Shown here one piece after another: positions 1 through 17,841 of a stretch of 28,359 nt of DNA. Source of the stretch: Planctomycetota bacterium (GTDB lineage: Bacteria > Planctomycetota > UBA11346); the NCBI GenBank assembly GCA_038213805.1, contig JBBQSO010000068.1, positions 1-28,359 on the forward strand. The letters run 5' to 3'. Position 1 is the stretch's first letter. The number at the start of each line of letters is the position of its first letter. Made by a program: the position numbers and the translations under genes. The notes beneath the pieces were generated by a model, which saw only the letters and a program-made list of their open reading frames with translations, searched no databases and was not told where the DNA came from.

Positions 1-543
1 CGCCACGCTGCGGATGCGCTCGTTGGTCTCGAGGCTGGGCTGCTCAGCCTTGCCGCCGGCCGGGGCCGTGCCGAGGTCTTCGGGCATGACCAGGGCCTTG
101 GCGTTGATCAGGGAAAGCAGCACTTCCTTGGTCTTGCCCTCGTAGGCGGTGTACCAAGCGAGCAGGTCGGTGCTGTCGAAGATCGGCGCGAGCAGCACTG
201 CGCTGCGTTCGGCGAGGTCCTTCTTGATCTCACCGTATTCCTTGTCGTAGGTCTGCACCTTGGGATCGAGTTCTTGCGCCCAGCGCTCGGTGAGCAGGTA
301 ATCGTTGGTGAGCTTCTTGATGTCGTCGGGCTTCTCTGGGTCGAAGACCCCGAGCGGGTTGCCGCGCTTGGCGCGCCCTTCGAGTTCCTTGAGCTTCTCG
401 AAGTCGGAGTCGAGCTTCAGCTTGACCTCTTCAGCGGTCTTGCCCTGGTCGTCACTGGGCTCGACCGAGAAGAATACGATGAGCGCGGCCAGGAACAGGA
501 CGGCGGAGATGATCCAGAACAGGTAGAGCTTGAGCTGTTTCAC
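1..543 (-). CDS. Membrane-anchored type IV pilus assembly protein, PilO-like by position (partial, runs off the window's left edge)
   Basis: Not in the ORF track. GTG at 543 overlaps the pilM TGA (GTGA). Open frame MKQLKLYLFWIISAVLFLAALIVFFSVEPS... to base 1, with an N-terminal TM helix followed by a charged helical region. Confidence 0.7.
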   Translation of the reverse strand, partial: MKQLKLYLFWIISAVLFLAALIVFFSVEPSDDQGKTAEEVKLKLDSDFEKLKELEGRAKRGNPLGVFDPEKPDDIKKLTNDYLLTERWAQELDPKVQTYDKEYGEIKKDLAERSAVLLAPIFDSTDLLAWYTAYEGKTKEVLLSLINAKALVMPEDLGTAPAGGKAEQPSLETNERIRSVA

Positions 544-2402
544 TTGCCGGCCTCCTTCTTGGCGGGCTTGGCGGGGGCGGCCGGGGGCGGCGTGGCGACG
601 ACCGCGTTGGTGACGTCGCAGTGAAGGGTGACGACGATCATCGGCACCTTGAATTCCTTGATCTCGGTCTTGGAGGCGCCGGTGCGCTCATCGATCTTGG
701 TCGGGTCGGTCGCGTAGGAGACGTCCTCGGCATCGACGCGCAACTTTTCCTGGACCTCGCTGAAGAGCTTTTCGCTCGGGTGGAGCGACTTGAGGTATTC
801 GGGATTGGGGGCGGCGGAGAGGCGGTCGCGCAGGGTCTGCGGCAGGCTGCGCAGGGCGTCCTTCTTGGGGATGCGCACCTTGAGCACCGCGCGCCGTGGC
901 TCGTCGAGCGGACGGAAGACGCTGGCGTCGCCGTCGGCCTTCAACGTGGTGACCTCGAGAGATTCAAGGAACAGCGCCTGGAGGGGCGGCTCGCCCCCCT
1001 CCTCGGGCGGTGGCGCACCGGGATTCACCAGGCCGTTTTCGCGGATGAGGTCCTCCATCACCGCCAGCACGGTCTCCTCGACGGCGTGGACCACGCCCTT
1101 CTGACCGCCGTAGACGGCGAAGGATTTGAGCGTTGCGGCGCTGGGGCCGACGCGCGCGAGGACCTTGCGCGAACTCTCGACGCGCACCTCGTTCTCCTTG
1201 TAGTGGGCGTCGATGCCGGCGGACATCGCGGTGTTGTCCTTGATGACGCGCGCGTAGACCATGTAGTTGATCAGCCAGGTTGCGAAGACCATGCCGACCA
1301 GCGCACCGCCTGCCCAACGCTTGGTCTTGAGAACGCGCTGCAGCTGCATCTGGCTGGGCAGCAGATTGACGTTGGCCTTGGCCAGACCGGTGCCCTGCAG
1401 GGCGAGGCCGAGGGCGACACCCAGGGACTGCAGGTCGCGCAGGAACAGGCTGCGGTCCATGCCCGCGGCGACCTGGATCTTGTCGAGGTCCTCGAGGATG
1501 TTGACGGTGTAGCGCAGGCGCTCGGCGAGGTATTCGGGCAGGTTGGGCAGGCGGAAGGTGTTGCCGGAGATGACCAGGTTGTCGAGTTTTGCGTTGGGAT
1601 TCTGCGATTTGTAGAAGCCCAGGCTGCGCTGAACCTCGCTGGTCAATTCGCCGAGCGAGCCTTCGAGGACCTTGAGGATCTTCTCGGCCTGGCGGCTGTC
1701 GCCGATCTGGCGCTTGAGGGTCTCGGCCTCCTCGAAGGAGACGCGGAACTTCTTCATGAAGACCTTGGTGATGTCGTTGCCCGACAGCGCCAGGGTGCGC
1801 ATCCACAGGGTCTCGCCCTGGTAGAGCACCAGATCGGTGTTCTCGGCGCCGACATCGAGGATGATGACGGTCTCGTCGTCCGGGAATTCCTGGTCGAAGC
1901 GCACGAAGTTGTAGAGCGCCAGGCTCGACACCGACACGCCGACGAGGTTGATGCCGGCGCGCTTGCACTTGCGGATCAGCTCTTCAGTGAGGGTGCGGCG
2001 GGCGGCGAACAGTGCGACGTCGTTGGAGGCGCCGTCGGCGGCTGGGGACAGATGGTAGCCCCACTCGACCTCATCGAAATTGCCCGGGATCTGCTGGCGG
2101 GCCTCCAGCTCCACCATCTTGTCAACCTTCTTGGGGTTCAAGACGGGGATGTTGATCGTGCGGGTGAAAATCTGCCGACCGGAGAGCGAGGCGACCACCG
2201 GCACACCACCGATGTCCTCTGCCTGGGCCAGCTGTTGGAGCGCCTTGACCACGGCTTCGTCACGGTCGCCATCTTCCGCCACGGTGATCGGCTCGATGGC
2301 ATAGGCCATCACCGTTACCCCGTTCCCGGTGCGCGCGAGCTTGGCGGCCTTGATGCTCGAATGTCCGATATCGAGGCCCCAAACAACCGGGTATTTTTCC
2401 AT
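540..2402 (-). CDS. pilM: Type IV pilus assembly protein PilM with a fused PilN-like C-terminal region
   Basis: Actin-like motifs GLDIGHSSIK, LDVGAENTD, ISGNTFRL and EIQ/EVQRSLGFY-type segment. Followed by the PilN signature NVNLLP, a TM helix and a periplasmic domain. Confidence 0.9.
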   Translation of the reverse strand: MEKYPVVWGLDIGHSSIKAAKLARTGNGVTVMAYAIEPITVAEDGDRDEAVVKALQQLAQAEDIGGVPVVASLSGRQIFTRTINIPVLNPKKVDKMVELEARQQIPGNFDEVEWGYHLSPAADGASNDVALFAARRTLTEELIRKCKRAGINLVGVSVSSLALYNFVRFDQEFPDDETVIILDVGAENTDLVLYQGETLWMRTLALSGNDITKVFMKKFRVSFEEAETLKRQIGDSRQAEKILKVLEGSLGELTSEVQRSLGFYKSQNPNAKLDNLVISGNTFRLPNLPEYLAERLRYTVNILEDLDKIQVAAGMDRSLFLRDLQSLGVALGLALQGTGLAKANVNLLPSQMQLQRVLKTKRWAGGALVGMVFATWLINYMVYARVIKDNTAMSAGIDAHYKENEVRVESSRKVLARVGPSAATLKSFAVYGGQKGVVHAVEETVLAVMEDLIRENGLVNPGAPPPEEGGEPPLQALFLESLEVTTLKADGDASVFRPLDEPRRAVLKVRIPKKDALRSLPQTLRDRLSAAPNPEYLKSLHPSEKLFSEVQEKLRVDAEDVSYATDPTKIDERTGASKTEIKEFKVPMIVVTLHCDVTNAVVATPPPAAPAKPAKKEAGK

Positions 2403-3160: not shown

Positions 3161-5857
3161 ATGGCCGTCGCCTATATCGACTTCTACCTGGTCTCGAACA
3201 GCGGGACGGTGCTGCAGCTGCTGCCGCAGCGGACGTATGTGTTCGGGCGCGGGGACGACGTCGACATCCTGATCCAGGACAACCTCACCTCGCGTCACCA
3301 CTGCGAGCTGCGCTGGGACGATCAGAGCCTGTGGTCGTTGGTGGACCTTGAGAGCCGCAACGGCAGCTACCGCAATGGACATCGCCTGACGGGCAGCGAG
3401 GCGCTCGCGGACAAGGATCTGATCCAGGTCGGGGGCCAGCAATTCACCTTCGCGCTGTTGCCACCGGGGTCCGACCCATCGTCGCTGATCGACCGCGGTA
3501 AGGGCACCATCAGCAGCATGGAGACCTTCGAGGTGTCCAGCCACGAGCTGATGGCGGACAGCGCCAAGCCGTCCTTCAGCGGCGAGGTCACCGATCGCGA
3601 TCTGAGCAAACTGCTGCGCTTCTTCAGCCTGACCAGCAAAACCGGGCGGCTGACCCTGGCGGCGCCGCCGGAGCGCGAACTGTGGCTGGTCGATGGCGTG
3701 CCGCGGCACGCGCGCGCGGACGCCCTGACCGGGCGCGCGGCGATCGCCAGTCTGGTCTCTGATCCGGGGGCGACTTTCCGTTTCCACGAGGGCGAGCGCC
3801 TTGATGACGGGCTGTGGACCATCGCCGGGGACCGCGTGACGGTGCTGCGCGACCTGCTCGGCATCACCGACCTCTCCGACCTCGGCATCGACATCGCGGA
3901 TCTCGCCAAGGCCGAACGCCTGCAGCGCCACCTGCTGGCGCGTCTGCCGACCATACCGGGCTACGACATCGGCGTGGTCTACGAGGGGCGCTCTGGCGTC
4001 AGCGGGGACTTCTACGATGTCGGTATGATGCCCAGCGGCGATGTGCTGGTGGTGCTTGGCGACGTCGCCGGCCACGGCGTGCAGGCGGCGCTTGAGGTGG
4101 CGAGCATGATCAAGTCGCTGCGCGCGCTGCGCCGCCAGGACCACGAACTCGGCGAACTGCTCGGCCTGCTCAACGACGACCTGCGTCAAGAGCTGCTGCC
4201 TGGGCAGTTCATGACGGTGTTCGCCGCGCTGCTGACGCCGGCCACCGGCGAAGTGACCATGGCGCTGGCCGGTCACCACCCGGCGCTGCGCTTCACGCTG
4301 CAGGGCGACATCGCGATCGAGGCCCTGGGCAAGCGCGGACCGGCGCTCGGACTGTTCCCAAGCGAGCGCTTCGTGCCGATGCTGCAGCTGACCACGCTGC
4401 GCCTGGGACGCGGGGAGGGCCTTCTGCAGTTCACCGATGGCATTCTCGAGGCGATGGACGCCAAGAGCGAGGAGTTCGGCGATGAGCGCCTGGCTGCGAG
4501 CCTGGGTCGTCACCGTGCCGGCACCGCGCAGCAGCTGGTCGACGCCATCTCCGCCGACACCAAGGCCTTTGCCACCACCATCGAGGACGACGTGACGGTG
4601 CTGGCCGTGGTGCGCAGGGCGGACGCGCCCGACGGTCAGCCGGTGCCGCGCACCAGCCAGGGATCGACCGATGCGCATGAGCGCCGCAGCGGCCCGCCGA
4701 GCACCGATTTCGGCATCATCGTGCCGCGGCAGGGCGGCGCCGCACCCGAGGTGACCGCGGCGGTGCGCGCGGCGAGCGCATCGACCGGGACGACGGCGCG
4801 GCCCGCGCCGGCGTCGGAGCGCGCCGTCGCGCCGGGCGGCGATCCCTGGCTCGGCCGACATTTCGGCCAGGTCAAGACGGTGTGCCGCATCAGCCAGGGC
4901 AGCATGGGCGCGGTCTACCGCGGCCACCACGAGGTGCTCGATCTCGATGTCGCGGTCAAGATCATGCTCAACCGCGGCAACGATGCGCGCGCCGAGCTGC
5001 ACCGTCAGCGCTTCCTGCGCGAGGCGCGCGCGGCGGCGCGCATCCGCCACAATCACGTGGTGCAGATCATCGACGCGGGGCAGACTGCCGAGGGCGAGCC
5101 CTTCCTGATCATGGAGCTGGTCGAAGGGCCGAGCCTGGCGCGGCGCCTCGATGAGCACGGACGCATGGGCGCGGTCGAGCTGGTGCAGATCGGCAAGGGC
5201 ATCGCGGAAGGCCTGGCCGCGATCCACCGCCAGGGTATCGCGCACCGCGACATCAAGCCCGACAACATCCTCATCGATCCCTCGGGCCAGGCGAAGATCA
5301 GCGATCTCGGCCTGGCACGGCTAGTGGACGAGAGCGAGGCGCGTGGACTGACCAAGACGGGGATCGTGGTCGGCACGCCAGCCTACATCTCGCCGGAGGC
5401 GATCCGCGATTCCAGCACCGCCGGGCCGCCCTCGGACATCTACAGCCTGGGCGTGACCTTCTACCACCTGCTCGCCGGCCGGCCGCCGTACGAAGGCAAG
5501 GTGATGAGCGAGCTGATGCGCGCGCACCTGCTCGGCAAGTTCACCCCGTTGCGCAACCTGGTGCCGGGCCTGGATCCCGCGCTGTGCGCGCTCGTCGAGC
5601 GCTGCCTGAAGGTCGATGCCGAGGAGCGTCCGACCGCCGACCAGCTCGCGCAGGGCCTGGGCGCCCTGGCGACCAGCAACGCCGGCGGCTTCATGGCCAG
5701 TCAGGCGACGATCGTACCGCAACTGTTCCGCAAGCAGAAGCAGCGCCAGCAGCGCGGCCTGCTCGCCGACCGGCGGCTATGGATCGGCCTGATCATCGCC
5801 CTGGCGGTGGTGGGGCTGCTCGCGCTGCTGGTGGCGAACCGGCATTGGTTCATCTAG
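3161..5857 (+). CDS. FHA + DUF4388/PATAN-like + SpoIIE/PP2C phosphatase + Ser/Thr kinase with C-terminal TM anchor
   Basis: FHA: FGR..SRHH..DLESRNG. DUF4388-like: FSGEV..LSKLLRF..KTGRLTL. PP2C: SGDFYD, GDVAGHG, AGH, FTDGILEA, DDVT. Kinase: VAVK, HRDIKPDN, DLGLA, GTPAYISPE. TM: LWIGLIIALAVVGLLALLVA. Confidence 0.9.
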   Translation: MAVAYIDFYLVSNSGTVLQLLPQRTYVFGRGDDVDILIQDNLTSRHHCELRWDDQSLWSLVDLESRNGSYRNGHRLTGSEALADKDLIQVGGQQFTFALLPPGSDPSSLIDRGKGTISSMETFEVSSHELMADSAKPSFSGEVTDRDLSKLLRFFSLTSKTGRLTLAAPPERELWLVDGVPRHARADALTGRAAIASLVSDPGATFRFHEGERLDDGLWTIAGDRVTVLRDLLGITDLSDLGIDIADLAKAERLQRHLLARLPTIPGYDIGVVYEGRSGVSGDFYDVGMMPSGDVLVVLGDVAGHGVQAALEVASMIKSLRALRRQDHELGELLGLLNDDLRQELLPGQFMTVFAALLTPATGEVTMALAGHHPALRFTLQGDIAIEALGKRGPALGLFPSERFVPMLQLTTLRLGRGEGLLQFTDGILEAMDAKSEEFGDERLAASLGRHRAGTAQQLVDAISADTKAFATTIEDDVTVLAVVRRADAPDGQPVPRTSQGSTDAHERRSGPPSTDFGIIVPRQGGAAPEVTAAVRAASASTGTTARPAPASERAVAPGGDPWLGRHFGQVKTVCRISQGSMGAVYRGHHEVLDLDVAVKIMLNRGNDARAELHRQRFLREARAAARIRHNHVVQIIDAGQTAEGEPFLIMELVEGPSLARRLDEHGRMGAVELVQIGKGIAEGLAAIHRQGIAHRDIKPDNILIDPSGQAKISDLGLARLVDESEARGLTKTGIVVGTPAYISPEAIRDSSTAGPPSDIYSLGVTFYHLLAGRPPYEGKVMSELMRAHLLGKFTPLRNLVPGLDPALCALVERCLKVDAEERPTADQLAQGLGALATSNAGGFMASQATIVPQLFRKQKQRQQRGLLADRRLWIGLIIALAVVGLLALLVANRHWFI

Positions 5858-5900
5858 GGGGAGCGCAGGCGCTACGGGCTAAACCCGAGCCACCGGCGCT

Positions 5901-6791
5901 TCACGGCCGATAGACGAAGCGCACGCCCACCAGCAGGTGCCGCGTGGCAGGGTCGATGTCGGCGCGATGTGCGGCGCGGGCGGTGGACACCGGGTCATTC
6001 CACGAGCCACCGCGCAGATGGCCCTCGCTGGTCTGCTCCCAGGCGTTGCCGTGCAGATCGTAGAAGCCCAGCGCCGTGGGCAGCAAGCCACCGACAGCCT
6101 GGGCACCGCGCGCGCCGCCCGCGCTCTCCGCGAGCAGGGCGTTAGCGGCGACCACCGCGGGCGCCTGGCTTTCGCCCCAGGCGAAGGTCCCGCCGCCGCT
6201 GCGCGCGGCGACCTCCCATTGCACGTCGCTGGGCAGGCCGAGCTGGACGTGATGACTGGCGAGATAGCCGGCGCAGGCGGCCACAGCCAGGTCATGGGAA
6301 ATGCCGATGGCCGGGAAGCTGTTGCCCACAGCGATGTCGCTGGCCGAAGTCGCCGAGACCAGCGTGGTCCATGGACTGCTGCCGGCGAGCACCTGCCACT
6401 GCGCCTGCGTGGTCTCGAAGACCGCGAGGTAGTAGCGCGGCGGGGCGGCGCTGGTCGCGGCCGGATCGACGCCCGCGCCGAGCGCCCCGCTGGCGGTGCC
6501 GATCGGGGTGGCGCCGGTCTCGACCAGGCGGAAGACCATCTTGGTGGAGCGGAAGGTCGGATCGCCGAGCAGATCGGGAACGCTGCCAGCTGCCTGGACG
6601 GTGCCGCTGGCGAGATCGAGGATCTGGTAGGCCGAGCGCGTGCGGCCGATGGCGGCGCTGAGCCCCGCGTCACTGCTGCCGGTTCCCGAGCCGGCGCCAC
6701 AACCCGCGATGGCGAGCAGCAGCGCGAGGCCGGCGCTGGCGGCGCAGATGCGCGCGCGCCGTGCTGGTGCCTGGGTGCAAGCGGTGCTCAT
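5901..6791 (-). CDS. SUMF1/FGE-sulfatase-fold lipoprotein (copy A), probably non-catalytic
   Basis: True start ATG 6791 overlaps the upstream TGA (ATGA). Lipobox LAIAG-C; FETTQAQW, LPSDVQWEVAAR, GFYDLHGNAWE, RGGSW, VGVRFV. Confidence 0.85.
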   Translation of the reverse strand: MSTACTQAPARRARICAASAGLALLLAIAGCGAGSGTGSSDAGLSAAIGRTRSAYQILDLASGTVQAAGSVPDLLGDPTFRSTKMVFRLVETGATPIGTASGALGAGVDPAATSAAPPRYYLAVFETTQAQWQVLAGSSPWTTLVSATSASDIAVGNSFPAIGISHDLAVAACAGYLASHHVQLGLPSDVQWEVAARSGGGTFAWGESQAPAVVAANALLAESAGGARGAQAVGGLLPTALGFYDLHGNAWEQTSEGHLRGGSWNDPVSTARAAHRADIDPATRHLLVGVRFVYRP

Positions 6792-9700
6792 CCGTTGCTC
6801 CCCACGCCGGCGTGGAAGAGGACCTGGATCGCCTGGAAAGTCGCGCTGCCGCTCACCGGGTCGACGATCAGGATGCCGATCTCCTGGTGCACCTCGGGCG
6901 CGCCGCCCGCCGTCCACGACACGGTCGCGGTGGCCGCACCGGTCTTGGTCACGGTCACGCCGCTCGGCGCACCGACGATCTGGAACTGCAGGTCGGCGCC
7001 GGCGGGCAGCAGGGTGGCGTCCGCCACCAGCGCGTAGACCAGGGGCGTGCCGAGGAAGCCCTCGCGCGGCGGGCTGGTCACGACCTGCGGGCGCGCCGCG
7101 GCCAGCCGCGACGACACCACCACCGTGGCGGTGGCCGGCGTCGAGGTGTTGATGCCGTCGCTGACCGCAAAGGTGAAGGCGTCGTTGCCGGTGTAGCCGG
7201 CGACCGGCGCATAGCCGACCAGTCCGGTGGCCGCGTCGAGCAGCGTCGCGGTGCCGTGCGTCGGCGCGCTCACCAGCTGCCAGGTCAGGACGTGGCCGAG
7301 CGGGCCGCTCGCCGGCAACAATCCGGAGGTGGGCAGATCCGAGACCGCGTAGAGGGTGACGTCCAACGCGGTGGGGACTGGCACCAGGGTGATCGTGGTG
7401 GTTGCCACCACGCTCGCCGCCTGGCCGTCGTTGGCGACCACCTGGACGGTGCGCACCGAGCCGACGGTGAACACCCCGTTGTGGGTGAAGCGCACATTGC
7501 GCAGCGCCGCCTGGGTCGCTGCCGGGGTGGCCTGGGCGTTCAGCGCCAGGACCAGCGGCGCGCCGCCGCTGCCGCCGGTGAAGGTGCCGATGGCGGTGCC
7601 GGCGAAGGTGACCGTGCCGCCCGCGACGCCGATCTGGCCGGCGCCGGTGCCGTCATCGCGCAGGTCGAGGACGTCGCCGGCCACACCGTTGGCAAGGCTG
7701 ATCGTCAGGGACCCGCCGGGGAAGGCCGCCGAATCGGCATCGGTGAGGGTGGCCGCGGCGTCGATCGCCAGCGGCGCATCGCCCTCCGTCCAGGTGCCAG
7801 GGGCACTCGGCAGCGTGACCACCGGTGGCACGTCGACGATTTGCACCGCGATGGTCTTGGTCACCGGCACGCTGCTGGTGCCAGCGCCATCGTTGAGCGT
7901 CACCTGCACGGTGCGCACCCCGCCGACGGGCGGCAGGGCCGCATCAAGGAAGGCCGCCTGGCGCAGCAGGGCCTGGGTCGCCGCCACGGTCGCGTTCGCG
8001 TCGAAGCGCACCAGCAGCGGGTTGGTGGCGGTGCCGGTGCCGCTCACCACGCCGAACGCGGTGCCCTCGTAGGAGACCACTCCGCCATTGACCGCGATCT
8101 GGCCGGGGCCCGACCCGGTGCTGGTGAAGAGCAGCTGGTCGTCGACGGTCGCCCCGGAGGTGAACTCGACGACCAGGAAGCCGGTCGGGTAGGCGGCGGT
8201 GTCGGGATCGCTGATGGTCGCCAGGGCATCCACCGGCAGCACGCCCTGGCCCTGCTGATAGGTGGCCGCGGGCGAGGGCAGGGTGACGACGGGCGCATTG
8301 TTGACCGCACTGAAGATCACCGTCAGCACTGCGGGCACGGACACGCCACCGACGCCATCGTTCGCCACGACGCTCAGCACGCGGTTGGCGATCGAGGGAT
8401 TGGACGACACGTTGGTGAAGCTCAGGTTGCGCAGCAGGGCCTGGGCGATCGCCGGGGTCGCCTGGCTGGTGAAGACGATGGTCAAGGGGCCGCCGTCGAC
8501 ACCGCCGCTGCTGAAGCCGACCACCGCGCCATTGAAGGAGATGGCGTTGCCAACCACCGACACCTGATTCGCACCGGCGCCCTGGTTGCGCACGGTGAGC
8601 TGGTCGTCGACGCCGGCGCCCGCAGTCCAGGTCGCGACCAGGGTACCGCCGGTGAGCTGCGGCGAATCGGCGTCGCTGAAGGTGGCGGTCGGATCAAGCA
8701 CGCGCGCGCCGCTGCCTTCAACATAGGTGATCGCGCGGCTGGGCAGGGTCACGACCGGCGCCTGGTCGACCGGCTGGACGATGATGTCCTTGCCGGCGGG
8801 CGCGCTGATGCCGCCGGCACCGTTGTCGAGCACCACCTGCGCGCGACGCGTCGCCGCGCTGGGCGCCGCATCGGCATTGTCGAAGGTGATGCTGCGCAGC
8901 AGCGCCTGCACCGCGGTCGGATCGGCGGCCGCCGCAAGCGTCACCACCAGCGCTGCGCCGCTGCCGCCGCTGAGCGTGCCGATGGGCGTGCCCTCGTAGT
9001 TCACGGTGCTGCCGGCGACGGCGATCTGGCCAAGGCCGTTGCCGACGCTGCGCACCGCCAGCAGGTCGCCGGCGCTGCCGTTGGCGATCAGCGAGATCTG
9101 CAGGTTGCCGCCAGCGAGCGTGCCGCTGGCATCGACGACCGTGGCGCCGCCATCAAGCACCACCGGCCCGCCGCCCTGCACCCAGGTCACCGCCGGCCCG
9201 GGCAGGGTCACGGCGGGCGTGGTGCCGACCGCCGCACCGCTGATGGTGATCGGGAAGGCGGTGACCGGCAGGCTGTTGCCCTGGGCGTTGACGACCGTGA
9301 ACTGGAAGCCGTCGCTGCCGGCCACGAAGCCGGTGTTGACGTAGCTGAGCAGGCCGGAATTGATCTCGGCCTGGGTGAAGGTGTCGCTGAGGGTCAGCGC
9401 GGTGCCGCCGAGCTCAAGCAGGCCGTCCGTCGGCAATGCCGAGAGGTGGTAGACCAGGGAGCTCGCCGGGCCGAAGTCCTGGGTCTCGAGCGCGAGGTAG
9501 CTGATCACGCCAGAGCCGTGCACCGCGACGGTCAGGCCGGCATCGGTGACCAGCACCGGGACGTGTGACTTGGGCGTGACGGTGACGGTGAAGCTGCGCG
9601 CCACGCGGTCGCGCCCGCCGTTGGCGGTGCCCCCATTGTCGGCGACCTGCACAAATATGGTGACCACTCCGCTCTGGTGCGCCAGCGGGGTGAACTGCAG

Positions 9701-11200
9701 CGCGCCCGCCGCCTGCGGCGAGGCGTAGAAGACCGTGGGGTTGGGGATGATGTCCGGCCGCGATGAGATCGCGGTGACGGTCAGCACCTGCGCAGCCTCG
9801 TTGGCCGGACCGGCGCTGATGCCGGCGATCTGCACGGTCTGGGCCGGGTCGTCCTCATTGATCACCAGGTCGGCGAGCGCGGCCAGGGTCGGGCGCTGGT
9901 TGACCGGCACGATCGTGAGCTGGAAGGTGCGACTAAAGGTGTCGAGCGACCCGAACGCGGTACCACCATCGTCATGCACGGTCACCGTCACCGTGGCGGT
10001 GCCGAACTCGAACGCGACCGGCGCGAGCATCAGCGTTCCGGTCGCCTGCGCGCTGGTGTAGACCACGGTCGGGTTGAGCAGGATCGCGGGGTTGCTTGAC
10101 GTGGCGGTCACGGTCAGGTTCTGCGCCACCAGGTCGCCGCCGTCGCCGATCCCGGTGAGCGGGATGCTGAGCAGACCCGAGTTCTCGAGCACGCTGCGGT
10201 CGGCGAGCACGTCGAGGGTCGGCGTGTGGTTGCGCGCCTGCACGCCCAGGACGCAGAACACCGTCGGACTGTCGAGCGCGCCATCGTTGACCACCACCGT
10301 CACCTGGCGGTTTCCGCCGATCGGCGGCGAGCCGACGTTGTCGTAGGTCAGGGTGCGCAGCACCGCCTGATACGCGGCCAGCGACGCGCTGCCGGTCAGG
10401 GTCAGCACCCCAGTCGCCGCGTCGAAGCTCTTGCTGATGCCGCCCTGCACGGTGGCGTCGAGCCGCTCGGCGGCGCCGTCCTGGCGCGCGGTGATGGTCG
10501 CGGTCGCCGAGACCAGGGTGGCGTTGTCCGGGTCGGCGACGGTCAGGGCGGTGGCATCGACCACCACCACCGCGCCTTGTCCCTCGATGAACAGCGCGGC
10601 GAAGTTGCCGCCGGCGACCAGCGGGCCATTGAGATCGAGGGCCGGCGCGTTGTTGACCGGGATCATGGTCAGCACGCAGTTTGCCGCGAGGCTGTCGACA
10701 AACCCGTCATTGACGATGACGGAGATGACGCGGGCGGTGGCGCTCGGATTCAGCGAACTGTTGTCGTAGACCAACGAACGCAACACCGCCTGGTAGTGGG
10801 CGACGGTGTCGACACCGCTCAGGGTGAGCAGGCCGGTGCTGGCATCGTAGCTCTTGGCGATCGCCGTGCCGGTGATCACCGCGTCGAGCAGTTCGGCGCC
10901 ACCGTCGAGCTGGTTGGTGATGCGCACGCGCGCACCCACCACCGTGTCCTGGATCAGGTCGGTGAGGGTCGCCGCGGCCGGATCGGCGATCGCCACCGCT
11001 CCGCCCGCCTCGGTGAAGGTCGCGGCGTAGTCGGCGCCGGCGACCAGCGCCCCATTGAGATCGACCACCGCCGGCTGCTGCGCGATGGTGAAGGAGGCGT
11101 TCACGTCGAGGGCCGCCGCATAGGGCGCACAGATCAGCGCGGCCATGCCCAGTAGGGCACGGACGAACAGCTGGCGCAGATGCGGCAGGCGGAGGGGCAT
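6788..11200 (-). CDS. Large secreted adhesin-like protein with cadherin/Ig-like repeats (adhesin A, 1470 aa)
   Basis: Signal peptide ending AAA. Repeats with VNNAP/VNQRP/VDQAP linkers, ~125-aa QALLR..F repeats, a CSPG/Cadherin_3-like unit (FTQAEIN.G.L.Y) and a Big_9-like unit (PTHG..Y.P..GYTG.D.FTF.VSDG). Confidence 0.85.
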   Translation of the reverse strand: MPLRLPHLRQLFVRALLGMAALICAPYAAALDVNASFTIAQQPAVVDLNGALVAGADYAATFTEAGGAVAIADPAAATLTDLIQDTVVGARVRITNQLDGGAELLDAVITGTAIAKSYDASTGLLTLSGVDTVAHYQAVLRSLVYDNSSLNPSATARVISVIVNDGFVDSLAANCVLTMIPVNNAPALDLNGPLVAGGNFAALFIEGQGAVVVVDATALTVADPDNATLVSATATITARQDGAAERLDATVQGGISKSFDAATGVLTLTGSASLAAYQAVLRTLTYDNVGSPPIGGNRQVTVVVNDGALDSPTVFCVLGVQARNHTPTLDVLADRSVLENSGLLSIPLTGIGDGGDLVAQNLTVTATSSNPAILLNPTVVYTSAQATGTLMLAPVAFEFGTATVTVTVHDDGGTAFGSLDTFSRTFQLTIVPVNQRPTLAALADLVINEDDPAQTVQIAGISAGPANEAAQVLTVTAISSRPDIIPNPTVFYASPQAAGALQFTPLAHQSGVVTIFVQVADNGGTANGGRDRVARSFTVTVTPKSHVPVLVTDAGLTVAVHGSGVISYLALETQDFGPASSLVYHLSALPTDGLLELGGTALTLSDTFTQAEINSGLLSYVNTGFVAGSDGFQFTVVNAQGNSLPVTAFPITISGAAVGTTPAVTLPGPAVTWVQGGGPVVLDGGATVVDASGTLAGGNLQISLIANGSAGDLLAVRSVGNGLGQIAVAGSTVNYEGTPIGTLSGGSGAALVVTLAAAADPTAVQALLRSITFDNADAAPSAATRRAQVVLDNGAGGISAPAGKDIIVQPVDQAPVVTLPSRAITYVEGSGARVLDPTATFSDADSPQLTGGTLVATWTAGAGVDDQLTVRNQGAGANQVSVVGNAISFNGAVVGFSSGGVDGGPLTIVFTSQATPAIAQALLRNLSFTNVSSNPSIANRVLSVVANDGVGGVSVPAVLTVIFSAVNNAPVVTLPSPAATYQQGQGVLPVDALATISDPDTAAYPTGFLVVEFTSGATVDDQLLFTSTGSGPGQIAVNGGVVSYEGTAFGVVSGTGTATNPLLVRFDANATVAATQALLRQAAFLDAALPPVGGVRTVQVTLNDGAGTSSVPVTKTIAVQIVDVPPVVTLPSAPGTWTEGDAPLAIDAAATLTDADSAAFPGGSLTISLANGVAGDVLDLRDDGTGAGQIGVAGGTVTFAGTAIGTFTGGSGGAPLVLALNAQATPAATQAALRNVRFTHNGVFTVGSVRTVQVVANDGQAASVVATTTITLVPVPTALDVTLYAVSDLPTSGLLPASGPLGHVLTWQLVSAPTHGTATLLDAATGLVGYAPVAGYTGNDAFTFAVSDGINTSTPATATVVVSSRLAAARPQVVTSPPREGFLGTPLVYALVADATLLPAGADLQFQIVGAPSGVTVTKTGAATATVSWTAGGAPEVHQEIGILIVDPVSGSATFQAIQVLFHAGVGSNG

Positions 11201-11202
11201 GT

Positions 11203-12174
11203 TCAGGGCTTGGTAGCAGCGGGCGGGGCGCTGTAGCGGAGACGGATGAGTTCGCTGCGTTCGTAGTCGGCGCCGGCGAGGTGGCGGCGCTGCTTGGCGG
11301 AGAGGCCGGGTCCGGCGCGGCGGGCGAGGAACAGCACCTCGTCAACCTGCTCGTCCGCTTGCAGCGCGCGGGCGGGCTTGGCCGCCAGGTGCAGCAGGCG
11401 GGTGGCACCGGGGGCGAGGGTGAAGGAGGCGGTATCGGGAAGCGCCCAGTCCTGATCCATCAGCCCGGTCTGGCGCGCGCCGAAGAAGCGGTTGCGACGC
11501 TCCTCCTCGCCTGCTCCGTACGCCTGGCGCAGGGTCAACAGGTCATACGTGGCGGGATGATCGTCATGGTTGGTGATCTCGACCTCGCCGCTCCAGCCGC
11601 CGTCGCCGTGCGGCACCATCTCGACCCGGCCAGGGGCGAGGGCGATGCCAGCGGCATGTTCGAGCGCCCCAGGATGGGGGTCGACCGCTGTCTCGATCAT
11701 CACACGCGCGCGCACCCGCAGCGCTGCGCCCAGGGCTGCGGTCGACTTGGGGCCAGCCTCGACATAGAGCATGAAGTGGCGGTTGGCGAGCTCGGGCTTT
11801 AAGGGGATGTCCAGCGTGACCCCGGCATGCGCCGTGCCGTGCGCCGGAACCTTCAGCACATTGTGGTCGAGGTGTACCCAGGACGCGTCGGGCAGCGGTT
11901 CGTAACCCGCTTCGTAGGAGGCGATCTCGTCCGGGCCGGGGACGATAGCCACCAGTTCGAAATCCTCGTCCGTACCGCCGGCGTTGCTGACCTGAATGTT
12001 CAGGCCCTGCGCACCGAGATCGAGCCGCACGCCGGGCGGCGCGTCCTCAATCAGAACGATGCCTGGCGAGATGCCCAGACCGCCGCCATCGGCCGCCATC
12101 ACTGCTGAAGCAGAGAACAGGCCACAGGTGATAAAGGCGACGAGCGGGTGCCGTCGATGATGATGCAAATGCAT
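11203..12174 (-). CDS. Secreted protein with two PapD/DUF916-like Ig domains (putative fimbrial chaperone)
   Basis: ATG 12174 with RBS GAAAGGGGG and a signal peptide. Two related halves: GLGISPG..VSN..SWV..LKVPAHG and GIALAPG..ITN..DWA..FTLAPG. Confidence 0.6.
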   Translation of the reverse strand: MHLHHHRRHPLVAFITCGLFSASAVMAADGGGLGISPGIVLIEDAPPGVRLDLGAQGLNIQVSNAGGTDEDFELVAIVPGPDEIASYEAGYEPLPDASWVHLDHNVLKVPAHGTAHAGVTLDIPLKPELANRHFMLYVEAGPKSTAALGAALRVRARVMIETAVDPHPGALEHAAGIALAPGRVEMVPHGDGGWSGEVEITNHDDHPATYDLLTLRQAYGAGEEERRNRFFGARQTGLMDQDWALPDTASFTLAPGATRLLHLAAKPARALQADEQVDEVLFLARRAGPGLSAKQRRHLAGADYERSELIRLRYSAPPAATKP

Positions 12175-12215
12175 GTTGCCCCCCTTTCGGTGGGTTGATG
12201 TGTAGTGCCCGCTGC

Positions 12216-12812
12216 TCAGAACGCAGTGCCGAGGAAGGTAAACGTCACGGTCTTGCCTGCACCCACACCACCGGTGAAGGAGCTCGGCACGGTGAAGGCG
12301 AACCATATCGAAAGGGTCGAGGCGGTCTCGGCGACGGTAGCAAATGCGTTTGAGCCAGCGACCAGGGTACCCGCGGTGAACACCGCCGCGGTATCGGCCG
12401 GAGGCGTGTTGTTGGCGGTGCATGCGGCAACAAACTGGTTGGCACCCGCCGAGGCGCCGGCAGCCCATCCGGCCGAGGTCGGGGTGACTGTCAGGACCAC
12501 AGCGTCGCCAGTCAGGGTTTGGTTGGTGATGACGAGCGTGGTACCGTCCGCGAGCGGCCAACCGGCGCCGTTGGTTTTGCTGAGGGCGTTGGTGACCGTG
12601 CTGAAACTCGCGCCGAGAGTGGCGAGACCAATTGGCCAGGAAACAGGAGCGGTTCCCGAAACGCCTCCGGTTCCACCCCAGACGATGCTGACGTCCTTTG
12701 AGACGGTGAACGTGGTGTTCACGACGAGCGAAGACGCAGCATCAGCGTGCTGGACGATCGCAGCGCCGGCGAGCAGCGCGAGGATGGGGATGAGGCGGTT
12801 GCGGCGTTTCAT
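12216..12812 (-). CDS. Small secreted beta-rich pilin/WxL-like fibre subunit (198 aa)
   Basis: ATG 12812; signal peptide MKRRNRLIPILALLAGAAIVQHADA. Mature part is T/A/G/V-rich with alternating strands and ends KTVTFTFLGTAF. Confidence 0.6.
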   Translation of the reverse strand: MKRRNRLIPILALLAGAAIVQHADAASSLVVNTTFTVSKDVSIVWGGTGGVSGTAPVSWPIGLATLGASFSTVTNALSKTNGAGWPLADGTTLVITNQTLTGDAVVLTVTPTSAGWAAGASAGANQFVAACTANNTPPADTAAVFTAGTLVAGSNAFATVAETASTLSIWFAFTVPSSFTGGVGAGKTVTFTFLGTAF

Positions 12813-13405
12813 GGCAGTGGCTTTCGGTTTTGGGTGCAGGGGACGTAGGATGGAGCGGAATGACATGGCGGGATTCCTTGGCGATGCGGTCTGAGACCGC
12901 GGGATTGGTGGAAGGATAGGGCTTGGAGAACTCAGCAGTGTACCCCCTGCGACCATTGGGAGCAACCCCACCCGAGACCCTTTGTGAGGTTCTGAACAAC
13001 CTTTCATCTCGATATTGAGACTTTGGTTACGTCGATTCGCTACAGCTGCATCAATTTGCGAACGGTCGCCTGCTTGCGAAAACTCCGCCTATCCTGCGCA
13101 GTGCGAGGCCAGCTTGCGCAGAGCTTGCCGGTGCGAACGAGCGCTGACTGGACGGCAGGCGAACGGACGCATTGCGCTGCGCTGGCACGGACGCGAGCCG
13201 CCTGATCTGCGTCTCGCCCACGCAGGCGAGGAAGGAGGGCGGTGCTGAGGCGGTGCTGATTGAAGGGTACACATCAGCGCACCATGCAGCGAATGCTCGT
13301 GCATGGCTGGTGATCCAGGCGCGCCGGGATCAGAGCATCCACGAAGGCACCCCGATGGTGTCACCGCGCATGTCCTTCAACGCTGCAGAGCAGCCTGCGA
13401 CGACT

Positions 13406-14293
13406 TTAAGGCTGGTAGACGAAACGCACCCCGACCAGCAGGTGCTTCGTCGCCCGATCGATGTCGGCGCGGTTGGCCGCGCGCGCGGTCGAGACCGGAT
13501 CGTTCCACGAGCCGCCGCGCAGGTGCGATTCCGCGCTCAGTTCGGAGACATTGCCGTGCAGATCGTAGAAGCCGAGGGTCGACGGTGCGAAGCCAGCGAC
13601 CGGCTGCGCACCGCGCGTGGCGCCGGCGGTTTCGGCGACCAGGGCGTTGGCTGTCACCACCGCCGGTGCCAAGCTCTCACCCCAGGCGTAGGTGCTGGTG
13701 GTACCCGCGCGCGCAGCGATCTCCCACTGCACGTCGCTGGGCACCGCGAGGTGCACACTGCGGGCGGCCAGATAGCCCTGGCAGGCGGTATTGGCCAGGT
13801 CGAGGCTGATGCCGATCGCCGGATAGGTGTCGCCGACGCGGACGTCCTCCGGCCCGGTCGCGGAGATCAGCGTGGTCCAAGGCGTGCTCGCCGCGATCAC
13901 CTGCCACTGCGCCTGCGTGGTTTCGAATACGGCCAGGTAGAAGCGGTCCGGTGCCACTGCCGCCGCGCCCTGGTCCACACCCGTACCCAGTCCGACGCTG
14001 GCGGTGCCGACCGCGCCGGGCAGGTGCACGCGGCGGAACACCATCGAGGTGGTACGATAGAGCGGATTGCTCAGCAGGTCGGGGACCTGGCCGGCGGGAT
14101 GGACCGTGCCGGTGAGCAGATCCAGGATCTGGTAGCTGGCGCGGGACTTGGCGATCGCAGAGCTGAGCCCGGTATCCTGCGAGCCGGTGCCGGAACCGCC
14201 GCAGCCTCCGAGCACCAGCGCGCCGATCACCAGCGCTGCGGCGCAGACGCCACTCCGTGCAGAAATCGTGCACATGGTTCTGGACATGGTCAT
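13406..14293 (-). CDS. SUMF1/FGE-sulfatase-fold lipoprotein (copy B)
   Basis: Lipobox LVLGG-C. Collinear paralogue of 5901-6791, with ATGA overlap to the upstream adhesin. Confidence 0.85.
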   Translation of the reverse strand: MTMSRTMCTISARSGVCAAALVIGALVLGGCGGSGTGSQDTGLSSAIAKSRASYQILDLLTGTVHPAGQVPDLLSNPLYRTTSMVFRRVHLPGAVGTASVGLGTGVDQGAAAVAPDRFYLAVFETTQAQWQVIAASTPWTTLISATGPEDVRVGDTYPAIGISLDLANTACQGYLAARSVHLAVPSDVQWEIAARAGTTSTYAWGESLAPAVVTANALVAETAGATRGAQPVAGFAPSTLGFYDLHGNVSELSAESHLRGGSWNDPVSTARAANRADIDRATKHLLVGVRFVYQP

Positions 14294-17200
14294 CCGCTCC
14301 CCCCTGCCGCCGCATGGAACAGCACCTGCACGGCTTGGCTGGCCGCGGCGCCGCTCACCGCATCGCTGATCAGGATGATGATCTCCTGATGTTCCTCGGG
14401 CGTGCCGGTGGCGGTCCAGGTCACGGTCGCGGTGGTCGGGCCGGTTCTGGTCACGGCCACGCCGGCAGGTGCGCCAACCGCCTGGAAGACCAGGTCAGAA
14501 CCCGGCGGCAGCAGGCTGGTGTCGGCGACCAGGTCGTAGGTCAGGGGCGAACCCAGGAAGCCTTCGCGCGGCGGGCTGGTCAGAACCTGCGGGCGCGCCG
14601 CGGCGAGTGGCACCGCGACCAGCATGGTCACCGTCGCCGGCGCGGAGACGGTGACCCCGTCGCTGACCGTGACGGTGAAGGAATCGCTGCCGGTGAAACC
14701 GGCGGCGGGCGTGTAGCGCACCGCGCCGGTGGTCGCGTCGAGCAGCGTGGCAGTGCCACGCGCCGGCTGGCTGGCCAGGGCCCAGGTCAGCGCGCCCCCC
14801 TCGGGATCGCTGCCCACCAGCAGTCCGTCGCGGGCGAGGTCCTGGACGGCGCCGAAGGTCACCGCGCTGGCGGTGGGCGGATCGTCGACCGGCACCAGAT
14901 CGACGACCGCGCCGGCAGTGTTGCCATCCGCCTGGCCATCGTTGGCCACCACGGCAAAATTACGCGTCTCTGCACTGGTGAACTCGCCGACGTGGCTGAA
15001 GACCACCGCGCGTAGCACCGCTTGGGCCGCGCCAGGCGTCGACAGCGGGCCGAAGCTGACTACCAGCGGCGAGCCGGGGCCGGCTCCGCCGGCATAGGTG
15101 CCGACGGCGATGCCGCTGACCAGCACCGACCCATTGCTGGTCGCGACCTGTCCGGCGCCAACGCCCGAGCTGCGCAGGTCGAGCACGTCCCCCGCGACCG
15201 CGTCGCTGCCGGTCACGGTCAGCGAACCGCCGTTGAAGGTCGCCGAATCGATGTCGCCGAGTACTGCGCCCGGTGCGATCGCGACCGGCAGATCGTGCTC
15301 CGTCCAGGTCGCAGGCGGATCCGGCAGCGACAGCGATGGCGCCACGTTCACCGCCTGCACGGTGACGATGCTGGTCACCGGTAGGCTGGTGCCGCCAGCG
15401 CCGTCGGTAAGCACCACCCGCACGGTGCGCGGCCCCCCCACCGGCGGCACTGCGACGTCGGCGAAGGCGAGCTGCCGCAGCAACGCCTGGGTTGCTGCGA
15501 GGGTCGCGGACGCGTTCAGACGCACCAGCAAGGGGCCGCCGATGGTGCCCGGTGCAGTGAGGATGCCGATCGGCACGCCTTCATAGAGTACGTCGCTGCC
15601 GCTGACCGAGATCTGCCCGGTGCCGGTGCCCTGACTGAGCACGGTGAGCTGGTCGTCGGCGGTCGCACCCGCGGTGAAATCGACCACCAGCAGGCCGGTG
15701 GGATAGGTCGGGGTGTCGATGTCGGTGAGACTGGCCAGCCCATCAAGCGCCTGCGGGGGCGCCCCCTGCAGGTAGAGCAGCCCCGGCGACGGCAGGGTCA
15801 CCACCGGCGGGTTGTCGACGGCTTCTACCACCACGGTCAGGGCTGCGGGCACCGAGACCCCGCCAGCGCCGTCACTGATCACCACCGCAAGCTGGCGCAG
15901 CGCGAGCGACGGGGTCGCCGAGGTGTTCGTGAAGGCAAGATTACGCAGGATCGCCTGGGCGATGGCCGGTGTCGCCTGAGCGGTGAAGGTTACGGTCAAG
16001 GCCGCGCCGGCAGCGCCCCCGGCGACGGTGGCCACATTCACACCGTCGACGCTGATCGACGTGCCGACGACGTGCACCTGCCCAGCCCCCGCGCCCTGGT
16101 CGCGGATGGTCAACTGGTCGTCGACCGTGGCGTTCGCCGTCCAGGTCGCGACCAGAGTCCCACTGGCGAATGCCGGCGAGTCGGGATCGATGACCGTGGC
16201 ACCGCCATCCAGCACCTGCGCACCGCTGCCTTCGAGATAGGCGACGGTGCGCGCCGGCAGATCGACCAGCGGCGCCTGGTTGACCGGCTGCACCTGCACG
16301 TCCTTGGTCACGGCCGCGCTCGTGCCGCCGGTGCCGTTGGTCAGCAGCACCTGCACGCGGCGCGCGGCGGCGCTCGGTGCGGCATCGCCGCTCGCGAACA
16401 GCAGGTTGCGCAGCAGTTCCTGCACGCCAGCCGGCGTGGCGGTACCGGCAAGCACCACCACCAGATCGCTGCCCACGCCGCCGCTGACGCTGCCGATGGT
16501 CGCACCCTGATACGTGACGATGCCGCCCGAGATCGCGACCTGCCCCGGACCGCTGCCGACGCTGCGGAACGACAGCAGGTCGCCGGCGCTGGCGTTCTGG
16601 GTCTCGTGCACGACCAGGGTGCCGCCGACCAGGCTGCCGGGATCGGCGACGGTGGCGGTGGCGTCGACCACCACCGCGCTGCCGCCCTGCACCCAGGTCG
16701 GCGGCGCCCCCGGCAGCGTCACCACCGGCGTGGTGGTGGCGAGATTGCCGGCGATGGTGATGGCGAAGGCGGTCGGCGCCAGGGCGTTGCCATCGCTGTT
16801 GGTGACGGTGAAGGTGAAGCCATCGCTCTCAGCGACGCTGCCAGTATGCGCGTAGAGCAGCAAGCCGGCGTCGATGTCGGCCTGGGTGAAGGTCGCGCCG
16901 GCACCGAGCGCGATCCCGGCGCGGCTGAGCGCGCCCTTGGTCGGCGGGGCAGCGAGATGGTAGACGAGCTGCGCCGGTGCGCCGAAATCACTGACCGTCA
17001 GCTTCGCAGAGGACACCACCGCGGCACCACGGATGGGTAGAGACAAACCGGTGTTCACCGTCACCACCGGAGTATGCGGAATGGCGGCGATGGTGACGTT
17101 GAAGGTCAGCAGGGTGCTTGCGTTGCCGCCATTGGCAGTGCCGCCGTCGTCGCCGACGGTGACCAGGATCACCGCGCTGCCACTGACGTGCGCAGTGGGC

Positions 17201-17841
17201 GTGAAGGTCAGGGTCGCGCTCGCGCCAGGACTGGCGTAGCCGACTGCGATGGCGGGGATCAGGTCGGGACGCGAGGACAGCGCCGCGACGCTGACCACCT
17301 GCCCGGATTCGTTCGCCGGCCCGGCGGCGATGCCGGTCAGGGTCACGACCTGCTGCGGCGCGTCCTCGCTGAGCGCGACATCGCCGGGCTGGGCGACCAC
17401 GGGTGGATCGTTCACCGGCAGCACGGTGACCGTGAAGGTGCGCGTGCGGGTGCCGGTCGGGAAGCCGTTGTCGCTCACCGTCACCGTCACCGTGGCGGTC
17501 CCGAAGGCGTCGGGCACCGGGGCGATGCGCAGCGTCGCGGTGGCCGCCGGACTGGCATAGACCACCGTGGGATCGAGCAGCACGCTGTGATCGCTCGACA
17601 CCGCGCTGACGGTCAGCACCTGCCCACCATCGCCACCGTCGCCGATGCCGGTCAAGGCGATGCCCTGCACGCCGCTGTCCTCGGTGAGGGTCAGCGGCGC
17701 CACCACGTCGAGGGTCGGCGTCTGGTTGGCACCCGCGGCCTGCGGCGCCGCCAGCACCAGCAGTGGCGCCAGCGCGAGCAGCCGCCGCAGGGTCGGCGGC
17801 AGCGCGCGCAGGTACGCAGGATGACGACTGGGACCGCGCAT
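14290..17841 (-). CDS. Large secreted cadherin/Ig-repeat adhesin-like protein (adhesin B, ~1183 aa)
   Basis: Likely start ATG 17841, 10 nt after the kinase stop; signal peptide ..LLALAPLLVLAAPQAAGA. Collinear with adhesin A from NxTPTLDV to the C-terminus. Confidence 0.85.
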   Translation of the reverse strand: MRGPSRHPAYLRALPPTLRRLLALAPLLVLAAPQAAGANQTPTLDVVAPLTLTEDSGVQGIALTGIGDGGDGGQVLTVSAVSSDHSVLLDPTVVYASPAATATLRIAPVPDAFGTATVTVTVSDNGFPTGTRTRTFTVTVLPVNDPPVVAQPGDVALSEDAPQQVVTLTGIAAGPANESGQVVSVAALSSRPDLIPAIAVGYASPGASATLTFTPTAHVSGSAVILVTVGDDGGTANGGNASTLLTFNVTIAAIPHTPVVTVNTGLSLPIRGAAVVSSAKLTVSDFGAPAQLVYHLAAPPTKGALSRAGIALGAGATFTQADIDAGLLLYAHTGSVAESDGFTFTVTNSDGNALAPTAFAITIAGNLATTTPVVTLPGAPPTWVQGGSAVVVDATATVADPGSLVGGTLVVHETQNASAGDLLSFRSVGSGPGQVAISGGIVTYQGATIGSVSGGVGSDLVVVLAGTATPAGVQELLRNLLFASGDAAPSAAARRVQVLLTNGTGGTSAAVTKDVQVQPVNQAPLVDLPARTVAYLEGSGAQVLDGGATVIDPDSPAFASGTLVATWTANATVDDQLTIRDQGAGAGQVHVVGTSISVDGVNVATVAGGAAGAALTVTFTAQATPAIAQAILRNLAFTNTSATPSLALRQLAVVISDGAGGVSVPAALTVVVEAVDNPPVVTLPSPGLLYLQGAPPQALDGLASLTDIDTPTYPTGLLVVDFTAGATADDQLTVLSQGTGTGQISVSGSDVLYEGVPIGILTAPGTIGGPLLVRLNASATLAATQALLRQLAFADVAVPPVGGPRTVRVVLTDGAGGTSLPVTSIVTVQAVNVAPSLSLPDPPATWTEHDLPVAIAPGAVLGDIDSATFNGGSLTVTGSDAVAGDVLDLRSSGVGAGQVATSNGSVLVSGIAVGTYAGGAGPGSPLVVSFGPLSTPGAAQAVLRAVVFSHVGEFTSAETRNFAVVANDGQADGNTAGAVVDLVPVDDPPTASAVTFGAVQDLARDGLLVGSDPEGGALTWALASQPARGTATLLDATTGAVRYTPAAGFTGSDSFTVTVSDGVTVSAPATVTMLVAVPLAAARPQVLTSPPREGFLGSPLTYDLVADTSLLPPGSDLVFQAVGAPAGVAVTRTGPTTATVTWTATGTPEEHQEIIILISDAVSGAAASQAVQVLFHAAAGGSG

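Follow-up and report, generated by a model that had tools for sequence, protein, structure and literature searches.

A cadherin-like adhesin in a Planctomycetota locus begins with a copy of a pilin-like protein's N-terminal strand and is a candidate donor-only subunit of a chaperone-assisted fibre

Donor-strand exchange (DSE) has long been tied to the chaperone-usher pathway of Proteobacteria, in which the acceptor-only tip subunits, such as FimH and PapG, are set against the terminator, exemplified by PapH; the known terminators of this pathway still carry a pilin domain. A chaperone-free donor-strand complementation of beta-sandwich subunits is found in the TasA/TapA fibres and in the archaeal bundling pili, where an accessory protein has been proposed to supply the strand. 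Here, we analyze a stretch of 28,359 nucleotides (nt), hereafter the window, which spans positions 1 to 28,359 of contig JBBQSO010000068.1 (GenBank assembly GCA_038213805.1) from a Planctomycetota bacterium of the UBA11346 lineage. It codes for a small pilin-like protein, a second protein of 323 amino acids (aa) with a chaperone-like predicted fold, and a 1470-aa secreted protein, adhesin A, whose mature N-terminus reproduces the N-terminal strand of the pilin-like protein. We favor, with moderate confidence, the interpretation that the locus specifies a chaperone-assisted DSE fibre, in which adhesin A serves as a donor-only subunit.

The closest described systems come from two 2026 preprints, which have extended DSE to the Bacillota (Elr/WxL; 10.64898/2026.10.17.759780) and to bacteria of the Candidate Phyla Radiation (CPR; the Pam pilus; 10.64898/2026.03.03.709456), each being reported as restricted to its own phylum. 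As described there, the Elr/WxL pilus of Enterococcus faecalis, reported from Bacillota only, is a DSE assembly that employs a DUF916/DUF3324 chaperone; it features ElrA, a large adhesin, as the predicted acceptor-only tip and ElrB, a 13-kDa anchor, as the predicted donor-only base, and 96.7% of the WxL chaperones possess a C-terminal membrane helix (10.64898/2026.10.17.759780). The Pam pilus, reported as exclusive to CPR, is likewise a DSE fibre, which combines membrane-anchored PapD-like chaperones with an acceptor-only tip, PamT, and a donor-only terminator, PamR (10.64898/2026.03.03.709456).

In the window, the genes for the pilin-like protein, the chaperone-like protein and adhesin A are closely packed and co-directional on the minus strand from 12812 to 6788, with the ATG of adhesin A placed 2 nt past the stop codon of the chaperone-like gene. 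The features on which the argument turns are:

12216..12812, minus strand: pilin-like gene, 198 aa; a 25-aa signal peptide ending in A-D-A, then a donor-like strand and a beta-sandwich domain
12696..12728, minus strand: N-terminal strand of the pilin-like protein, LVVNTTFTVSK, residues 29-39, following the mature ASS; the proposed donor strand
11203..12174, minus strand: chaperone-like gene, 323 aa with a signal peptide; 41 nt past the pilin-like gene
6788..11200, minus strand: adhesin A, 1470 aa; a 30-residue signal peptide, a donor-like strand, then cadherin-like and Ig-like repeats
11078..11110, minus strand: N-terminal strand of adhesin A, LDVNASFTIAQ, residues 31-41; the proposed donor-only module, which copies the strand of the pilin family
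14290..17841 (17841 approximate), minus strand: adhesin B, 1184 aa; a paralogue of adhesin A that is devoid of the donor-like strand

Translation reproduces exactly the strand sequences and coordinates given in a preliminary description of this DNA, and alignment confirms the resemblance on which that description was built: the two strands share L-x-V-N-x-x-F-T-[VI], are identical at 5 of 11 positions (BLOSUM62 sum 28) and occupy matching places right behind the signal-peptide cleavage site. No second 11-mer in adhesin A, adhesin B or the 323-aa protein attains a score of 28 against the pilin strand, and only 4 of the 1,922,890 11-mers in the likely coding open reading frames (ORFs) of the whole 5.5-Mb genome score 28 or more, the N-terminus of adhesin A being among the four. 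The absence of the strand from adhesin B, which had also been claimed, holds: its N-terminus scores -0.7 against a profile of the pilin strand, ranking 24/1137. As the mature N-terminus of adhesin B corresponds to about residue 333 of adhesin A, it lacks the first ~300 residues and the first two repeats of the latter, and, at the level of sequence, it acts as an internal negative control for the strand. We also considered whether the strand of adhesin A is simply a repeat-boundary strand of the cadherin-like repeats; by eye, it does take the position that is filled in the internal repeats by the last strand of the preceding repeat, which makes it an orphan, and such an orphan at a repeat boundary is in line with a donor role and does not speak against it.

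The same strand is the best-conserved stretch of the pilin family, where it takes the form L-x-V-N-x-T-F-T-[IV]: across 12 sequences T34 is invariant and L29, V31, F35 and T36 are nearly so. Outside the strand, W45, W59, N97, W116 and P176 are nearly invariant across 23 family members. The column of T33 in the donor strand (alignment A2) is occupied by cysteine in most close homologues of the pilin, which have another conserved cysteine in an A-A-C-T stretch; an inter-subunit disulphide or a modification at the donor strand is possible. The family is rare: 1.84 billion sequences contain 10 representatives (E<=1e-3), and there are five clusters at 90% identity, the window's included; its gene is single-copy in the genome of origin. 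The pilin-like protein has no sequence match in Pfam, NCBIfam or PDB, and none of 12 family members matches Pfam even at E<=5; a lone match of the family profile to PDB sequences (E 0.091) proved spurious, and the hits of the pilin in the ESM Atlas, WxL (0.83) and SCPU (0.82), are weak and were taken as leads only. Scans of metagenome contigs with the pilin and chaperone-like alignments found no relatives. Searches for longer fused forms of the pilin were likewise negative, which is weak evidence, given that two fused forms are visible directly in the loci discussed below.

The gene order recurs in other Planctomycetota. The chaperone-like protein is present in 9 of 401 sampled genomes of the phylum; within the family to which the window's organism belongs, 14 of 48 genomes have it. 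We read 16 loci, including the window, with readable upstream DNA in 14 and downstream DNA in 13 of them. In 13 of the 14, the chaperone-like gene is immediately preceded by a pilin-like gene, ten of these being recognized by a hidden Markov model and those of loci L018, L030 and L032 by position and alignment; the next gene downstream codes for a large secreted protein with an N-terminal pilin-type strand in 11 of the 13. Thus, the motif is common to cognate pairs elsewhere, whereas its restriction to one locus had been named as grounds for abandoning the idea. With a strand profile from which the cognate pilin and pilins closely related to it were excluded (for adhesin A, the window's entire clade), the mature N-terminus ranked first among all positions in five of nine downstream proteins (1/1432 for adhesin A, and 1/965, 1/896, 1/567 and 1/396), with the other four ranking 2/941, 4/297, 4/596 and 6/1423. 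Cognate pilin-adhesin pairs outscore shuffled pairings (p=0.0058; 8 loci, 40,320 permutations), as they do when one of each close pair is removed (p=0.046; 6 loci). At locus L015, the pilin and the adhesin share nine consecutive identical residues, of which 6 are specified by synonymously differing codons; these differences led us to reject recent gene conversion, and it is therefore selection that keeps the strands alike. At locus L017, an orphan chaperone-like gene (3944-5044, minus strand) is found amid regulator-like genes with no pilin or adhesin neighbor.

While the strand is retained, the payloads behind it vary by locus, comprising cadherin-like repeats, four PKD domains with Big_5, a combination of TIG, beta-helix, Calx-beta and PKD, or Big_5, Big_12 and Big_13 domains; in loci L013 and L016, the strand is instead preceded by an IPT domain and followed by the pilin domain. 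This arrangement may be compared to that of PamA/B, whose donor strand, according to the Pam preprint, links an N-terminal beta-sandwich to a truncated Ig domain. Judged by this distribution, the N-terminal strand is a portable and separable module. The converse architecture also exists: large proteins coded upstream of the pilin in L013 (12702-15179, minus strand) and L020 (2008-5712, plus strand) end in a pilin-like domain (E-values 3.2e-21 and 1.1e-15), which begins just past the strand position. No strand is present in the 45 residues preceding these domains, where the profile scores 0.8 and -5.7 at best; genuine pilin strands reach 13.6 or more. Hence, the loci encode donor-only proteins (adhesin A and 10 further downstream proteins) as well as the acceptor-only proteins of L013 and L020, although the window's own genome has none of the latter; strand-only proteins alongside strand-less domains are what a trans-complementing system predicts. 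The acceptor-only protein of L020 additionally bears CARDB, TIG and matrixin (Peptidase_M10) domains, and, from this domain content, may be a protease mounted on the fibre.

A structural prediction points in the same direction. We modeled the complex of the mature pilin (residues 26-198, 23-row alignment) with residues 29-190 of adhesin A, and obtained ipSAE values of 0.89, 0.85 and 0.80 (median 0.85), compared with 0.00 for the best of three controls. Of 157 solved complexes, 116 attain the pass mark applied here, as do 2 of 215 mismatched pairs; these counts serve as a rough guide since a custom alignment was used. The runs share at least 96% of their contacts, the partner pLDDT is at least 88 and the predicted error of the adhesin strand is below 1 Å. 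On the adhesin side, the interface is formed by residues 29-42 along with 82-85; on the pilin side, it is formed by two segments:

12228..12257, minus strand: C-terminal strand of the pilin, residues 186-195; in the prediction, a wall of the acceptor groove
12615..12647, minus strand: residues 56-66 of the pilin (the W59-x-I61-G62 strand); the other wall or the floor of the predicted groove

The lowest-error contacts (pilin:adhesin) are 192:32, 191:33, 190:34, 189:35 and 188:37, a descending series that implies antiparallel pairing. The second segment contributes the contacts 56:32, 57:33, 59:33-35 and 61:35-37, and the predicted contact residues include W45 and W59, both nearly invariant, while the pilin's own residues 26-40 lie outside the interface. 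The model thus supports a docking of the adhesin strand in trans, antiparallel to the last strand of the pilin, in keeping with the earlier proposal that this strand enters a groove of the pilin; the Elr preprint describes such a geometry for the exchange between subunits in chaperone-usher and Elr pili. A pilin that folds as a complete monomer with no groove, the second ground that had been named for abandoning the idea, did not emerge from the predictions.

The intervening 323-aa protein is chaperone-like in its predicted fold. It has no Pfam or NCBIfam match, including to PF00345, PF06030 and PF11797, and its confident AlphaFold2 (AF2) model (pLDDT 79.8, pTM 0.77) resolves two domains. Residues 174-319 adopt a PapD-like fold, superposing best on SafB (Z 11.1, root-mean-square deviation (rmsd) 2.6, 111 aligned residues with VIA-align), along with YadV (Z 11.1), FimC (10.5), CupB2, FaeE, EcpB, CsuC and CfaA (Z 9.8-11.1 overall). 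Residues 27-166 resemble the WxLIP/DUF916 domain, with the Enterococcus faecium WxLIP structure 9i1y as the match (Z 10.8, rmsd 4.3, 125 aligned); Foldseek is in agreement. Its C-terminal tail is polar and contains neither a membrane helix nor any hydrophobic helix, and its gene is the single copy in the window's own genome. Hits to PapD_N (0.88) and WxLIP_PGBD (0.87, with a 22% share) in the ESM Atlas were treated as leads only.

Set against the described systems, the locus displays a mixture of shared logic and distinct parts. It resembles Elr in being usher-less and, as proposed, chaperone-primed, and in the predicted strand pairing, in that the N-terminal amphipathic donor strand of Elr likewise takes an antiparallel orientation along the acceptor's C-terminal strand. 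Further, the strand-donating domain of the Elr chaperone is DUF916, and it is the WxLIP structure that the N-terminal domain of the window protein fits (Z 10.8). Both systems combine donor-only and acceptor-only subunits with an invariant attachment module and variable payloads, a commonality of logic that does not imply homology. They differ in that the chaperone-like protein of the window lacks a membrane helix, LPxTG/sortase anchoring is absent, the host is a diderm Planctomycete, and the donor-only subunit is a 1470-aa adhesin rather than, as with ElrB, a 13-kDa anchor; no window protein has a sequence match to WxL (PF13731), DUF916 (PF06030) or DUF3324 (PF11797). With Pam, the locus shares the lack of a dedicated trans-envelope machine, PapD-like chaperones and a donor-only protein, PamR, that inserts an N-terminal strand. 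In contrast to the membrane-anchored chaperones and PamR of that system, the chaperone-like protein of the window is soluble. Neither it nor the pilin has a match in NCBIfam release 20, a release whose content of Pam models is unconfirmed.

The likeness to the chaperone-usher pathway lies in the superposition of the C-terminal domain of the 323-aa protein on domain 1 of the chaperones and in the antiparallel DSE geometry that is predicted for the adhesin strand in the pilin. Adhesin A differs from the known terminators in having no pilin domain, and the PapD-like domain is C-terminal in the 323-aa protein as opposed to N-terminal in the chaperone-usher chaperones. The usher (PF00577) has no match in the window's genome, which is 90.3% complete (an E. 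coli control was positive), PapD_N (PF00345) has no match in the same genome, and the pilin-like protein has no Fimbrial or SCPU match. As to the TasA/TapA fibres, no window protein matches Peptidase_M73, and the superpositions of the pilin model on 8aur and 7ueg (Z 4.8-4.9) are at the noise level. Thus, the system shares the logic of DSE, yet has no sequence match to WxL, DUF916/DUF3324, PapD_N, Usher or the NCBIfam models. On balance, we regard it as probably a DSE fibre system of a kind undescribed in Planctomycetota.

The proposed mechanism would run as follows. The 198-aa pilin would be a beta-sandwich without its last strand, leaving a groove, and would carry its own donor strand in front, at the N-terminus; the 323-aa periplasmic protein would act as its chaperone. 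The mature N-terminus of adhesin A would present a copied pilin donor strand that is followed by no acceptor domain, and, by inserting into the pilin groove in an antiparallel orientation along the pilin's C-terminal strand, would attach the cadherin-like stalk of 1470 aa, in a non-covalent manner, to that end of a pilin or a pilin chain at which the groove lies. In the related loci, large acceptor-only proteins would occupy the opposite end of the fibre. In this scheme, sequence shows that the strand is copied, where it lies and how well it is conserved, as well as the cassette and the proteins with acceptor domains only; the docking geometry and the chaperone fold come from structure prediction, and the polymerization of the pilin, the action of the chaperone, the export across the outer membrane and the choice of the cell-proximal end are inferred. 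The grafting of adhesin A onto the pilin, which the preliminary description had put forward, finds in silico support from both the recurrence of the strand and the docking model; the chaperone-like nature of the intervening gene product and the acceptor-only proteins of related loci had escaped that description.

Several observations weigh against this scheme. First, the AF2 model of the pilin monomer (12 sequences) is all-beta and poor (pLDDT 54.6), with residues 28-37 modeled as a strand, and its fold matches are at the noise level (best Z 6.4). As a result of this poor model and noise-level search, the open groove is not visible independently of the complex model; we did not use these sub-noise matches (Z<=6.4) as evidence, even though TasA, a bundling pilus, Csu and the FimH lectin were in the list. 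Second, it is possible that the pilin's own strand normally occupies the site in cis and that the look-alike strand of the adhesin displaces it in the model. Third, no usher or other outer-membrane export component was found in the genome by which a fibre would reach the surface of a diderm. Fourth, by analogy to known systems the donor-only subunit would be cell-proximal, which would be an odd position for a 1470-aa adhesin without a recognizable membrane anchor. Fifth, two loci, L017 and L030, have no adhesin, the latter comprising a pilin and a chaperone-like gene only. Finally, the covariation of the cognate strands, a test suggested in the preliminary description, is modest: it stands overall, with the p-values given above, and fails in three of the eight loci (L014, L018 and L013), where the cognate pair is no better than the non-cognates.

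Two alternative explanations, both of which we consider unlikely, compete with this scheme. In one of them, no fibre is formed: the pilin-like protein would act as a monomeric adaptor, taking up the strand of the adhesin in a one-to-one socket and giving its own strand to an acceptor-only protein where there is one, so as to yield a short bridge or cap. The sole contact that was modeled is indeed 1:1, and the genome encodes one pilin only and lacks acceptor-only proteins; however, any subunit that offers a donor strand and also a groove accepting strands of that type is by construction self-complementary, and all known proteins so arranged polymerize, be they those of the Elr and Pam pili or those of the chaperone-usher pili.

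The other, to which we assign a similarly low probability, is that the strand is the ordinary first strand of a complete pilin fold, and that its copy in the adhesin is a shared tag, recognized either by the 323-aa protein or by a factor for export or modification. The co-occurrence of the strand with the chaperone-like gene and the strand seen at residues 28-37 in the monomer model are both compatible with this, and the cysteine at the T33 position in many homologues, together with the FGE-like genes nearby (see below), makes a modification site conceivable. Against it, the acceptor-only domains lack exactly this strand, which is impossible for a structural strand acting in cis, and the complex model places the adhesin strand into the pilin with an error below 1 Å while the controls remain at 0.00. 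Moreover, the chaperones of known systems bind the groove and not the donor strand, according to the Elr preprint (10.64898/2026.10.17.759780). Lastly, that the match is a chance or generic likeness between two Thr/Val-rich secreted proteins, a caveat of the preliminary description that its brevity and the abundance of T/V/I-rich strands in these adhesins might favor, is highly improbable and contradicted by the 11-mer counts in the neighboring proteins and in the whole genome, the 1/1432 rank with the clade-free profile and the recurrence at loci with other payloads.

Beyond the donor-only adhesin and its proposed partners, the neighborhood contains a set of genes with FGE-sulfatase-like domains:

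5901..6917, minus strand: FGE-sulfatase-like gene that follows adhesin A, whose end its ORF overlaps; start uncertain; Pfam PF03781
13406-14293, minus strand: FGE-sulfatase-like paralogue after adhesin B; Pfam PF03781
17852-21568, minus strand: Ser/Thr kinase with a C-terminal FGE-like domain, upstream of adhesin B

The two small genes match PF03781 with E-values of 2.4e-15 and 5e-17, and both adhesins match Cadherin_3 (E 9.5e-16 and 2.7e-19) as well as Big_9 and Cadherin_5 in Pfam. A small FGE-sulfatase-like gene thus follows each adhesin gene, with the kinase-FGE gene upstream, an order that is identical in L001, a locus from a related metagenome-assembled genome. The FGE-sulfatase-like gene of L001 (16028-16909) codes for a lipoprotein-type signal, and the FGE-like proteins weakly resemble the PorK/GldK ring lipoproteins; a role for them in binding or anchoring the C-terminal domain common to adhesins A and B is conceivable. 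In L001, both adhesin genes (5005-9441 and 11616-16031) are split over several frames, probably due to frameshifts of long-read assembly rather than because they are pseudogenes. The pilin gene of the window has a GC content at third codon positions of 0.70, as against 0.86-0.92 in its neighbors, and ~590 nt of non-coding DNA upstream, a combination that fits either high expression or recent acquisition; a scan for promoters and terminators from 11000 to 13450 found nothing exceeding shuffled sequences. The locus is flanked by genes for a PilM-like protein (620 aa; 1-2402, minus strand) and an FHA-SpoIIE phosphatase-kinase fusion (3161-5857, plus strand), neither of which showed a link to the cassette in the other loci.

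Literature linking Planctomycetes with donor strands was, in the sources as available, limited to one general 2013 review. If the DSE interpretation is true, the locus would represent an independent lineage of DSE in a diderm phylum, operating with a pilin and a chaperone-like protein that both lie outside Pfam and NCBIfam, with a soluble chaperone and with no usher, and it would introduce a new architecture, namely a giant adhesin bearing only the donor strand. More tentatively, Planctomycetota, and perhaps other diderms, could possess an usher-less plug-and-socket mode of display, in which a soluble periplasmic chaperone builds a chain of pilins and giant modular proteins are held non-covalently on both of its ends, acceptor-only proteins on one and donor-only proteins such as adhesin A on the other. 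A 12-residue N-terminal strand would then suffice to mount any payload on the fibre. If confirmed, this short strand would provide a search key for the cargo proteins of fibres in genomes, and a first molecular handle on the surface fibres of Planctomycetes.

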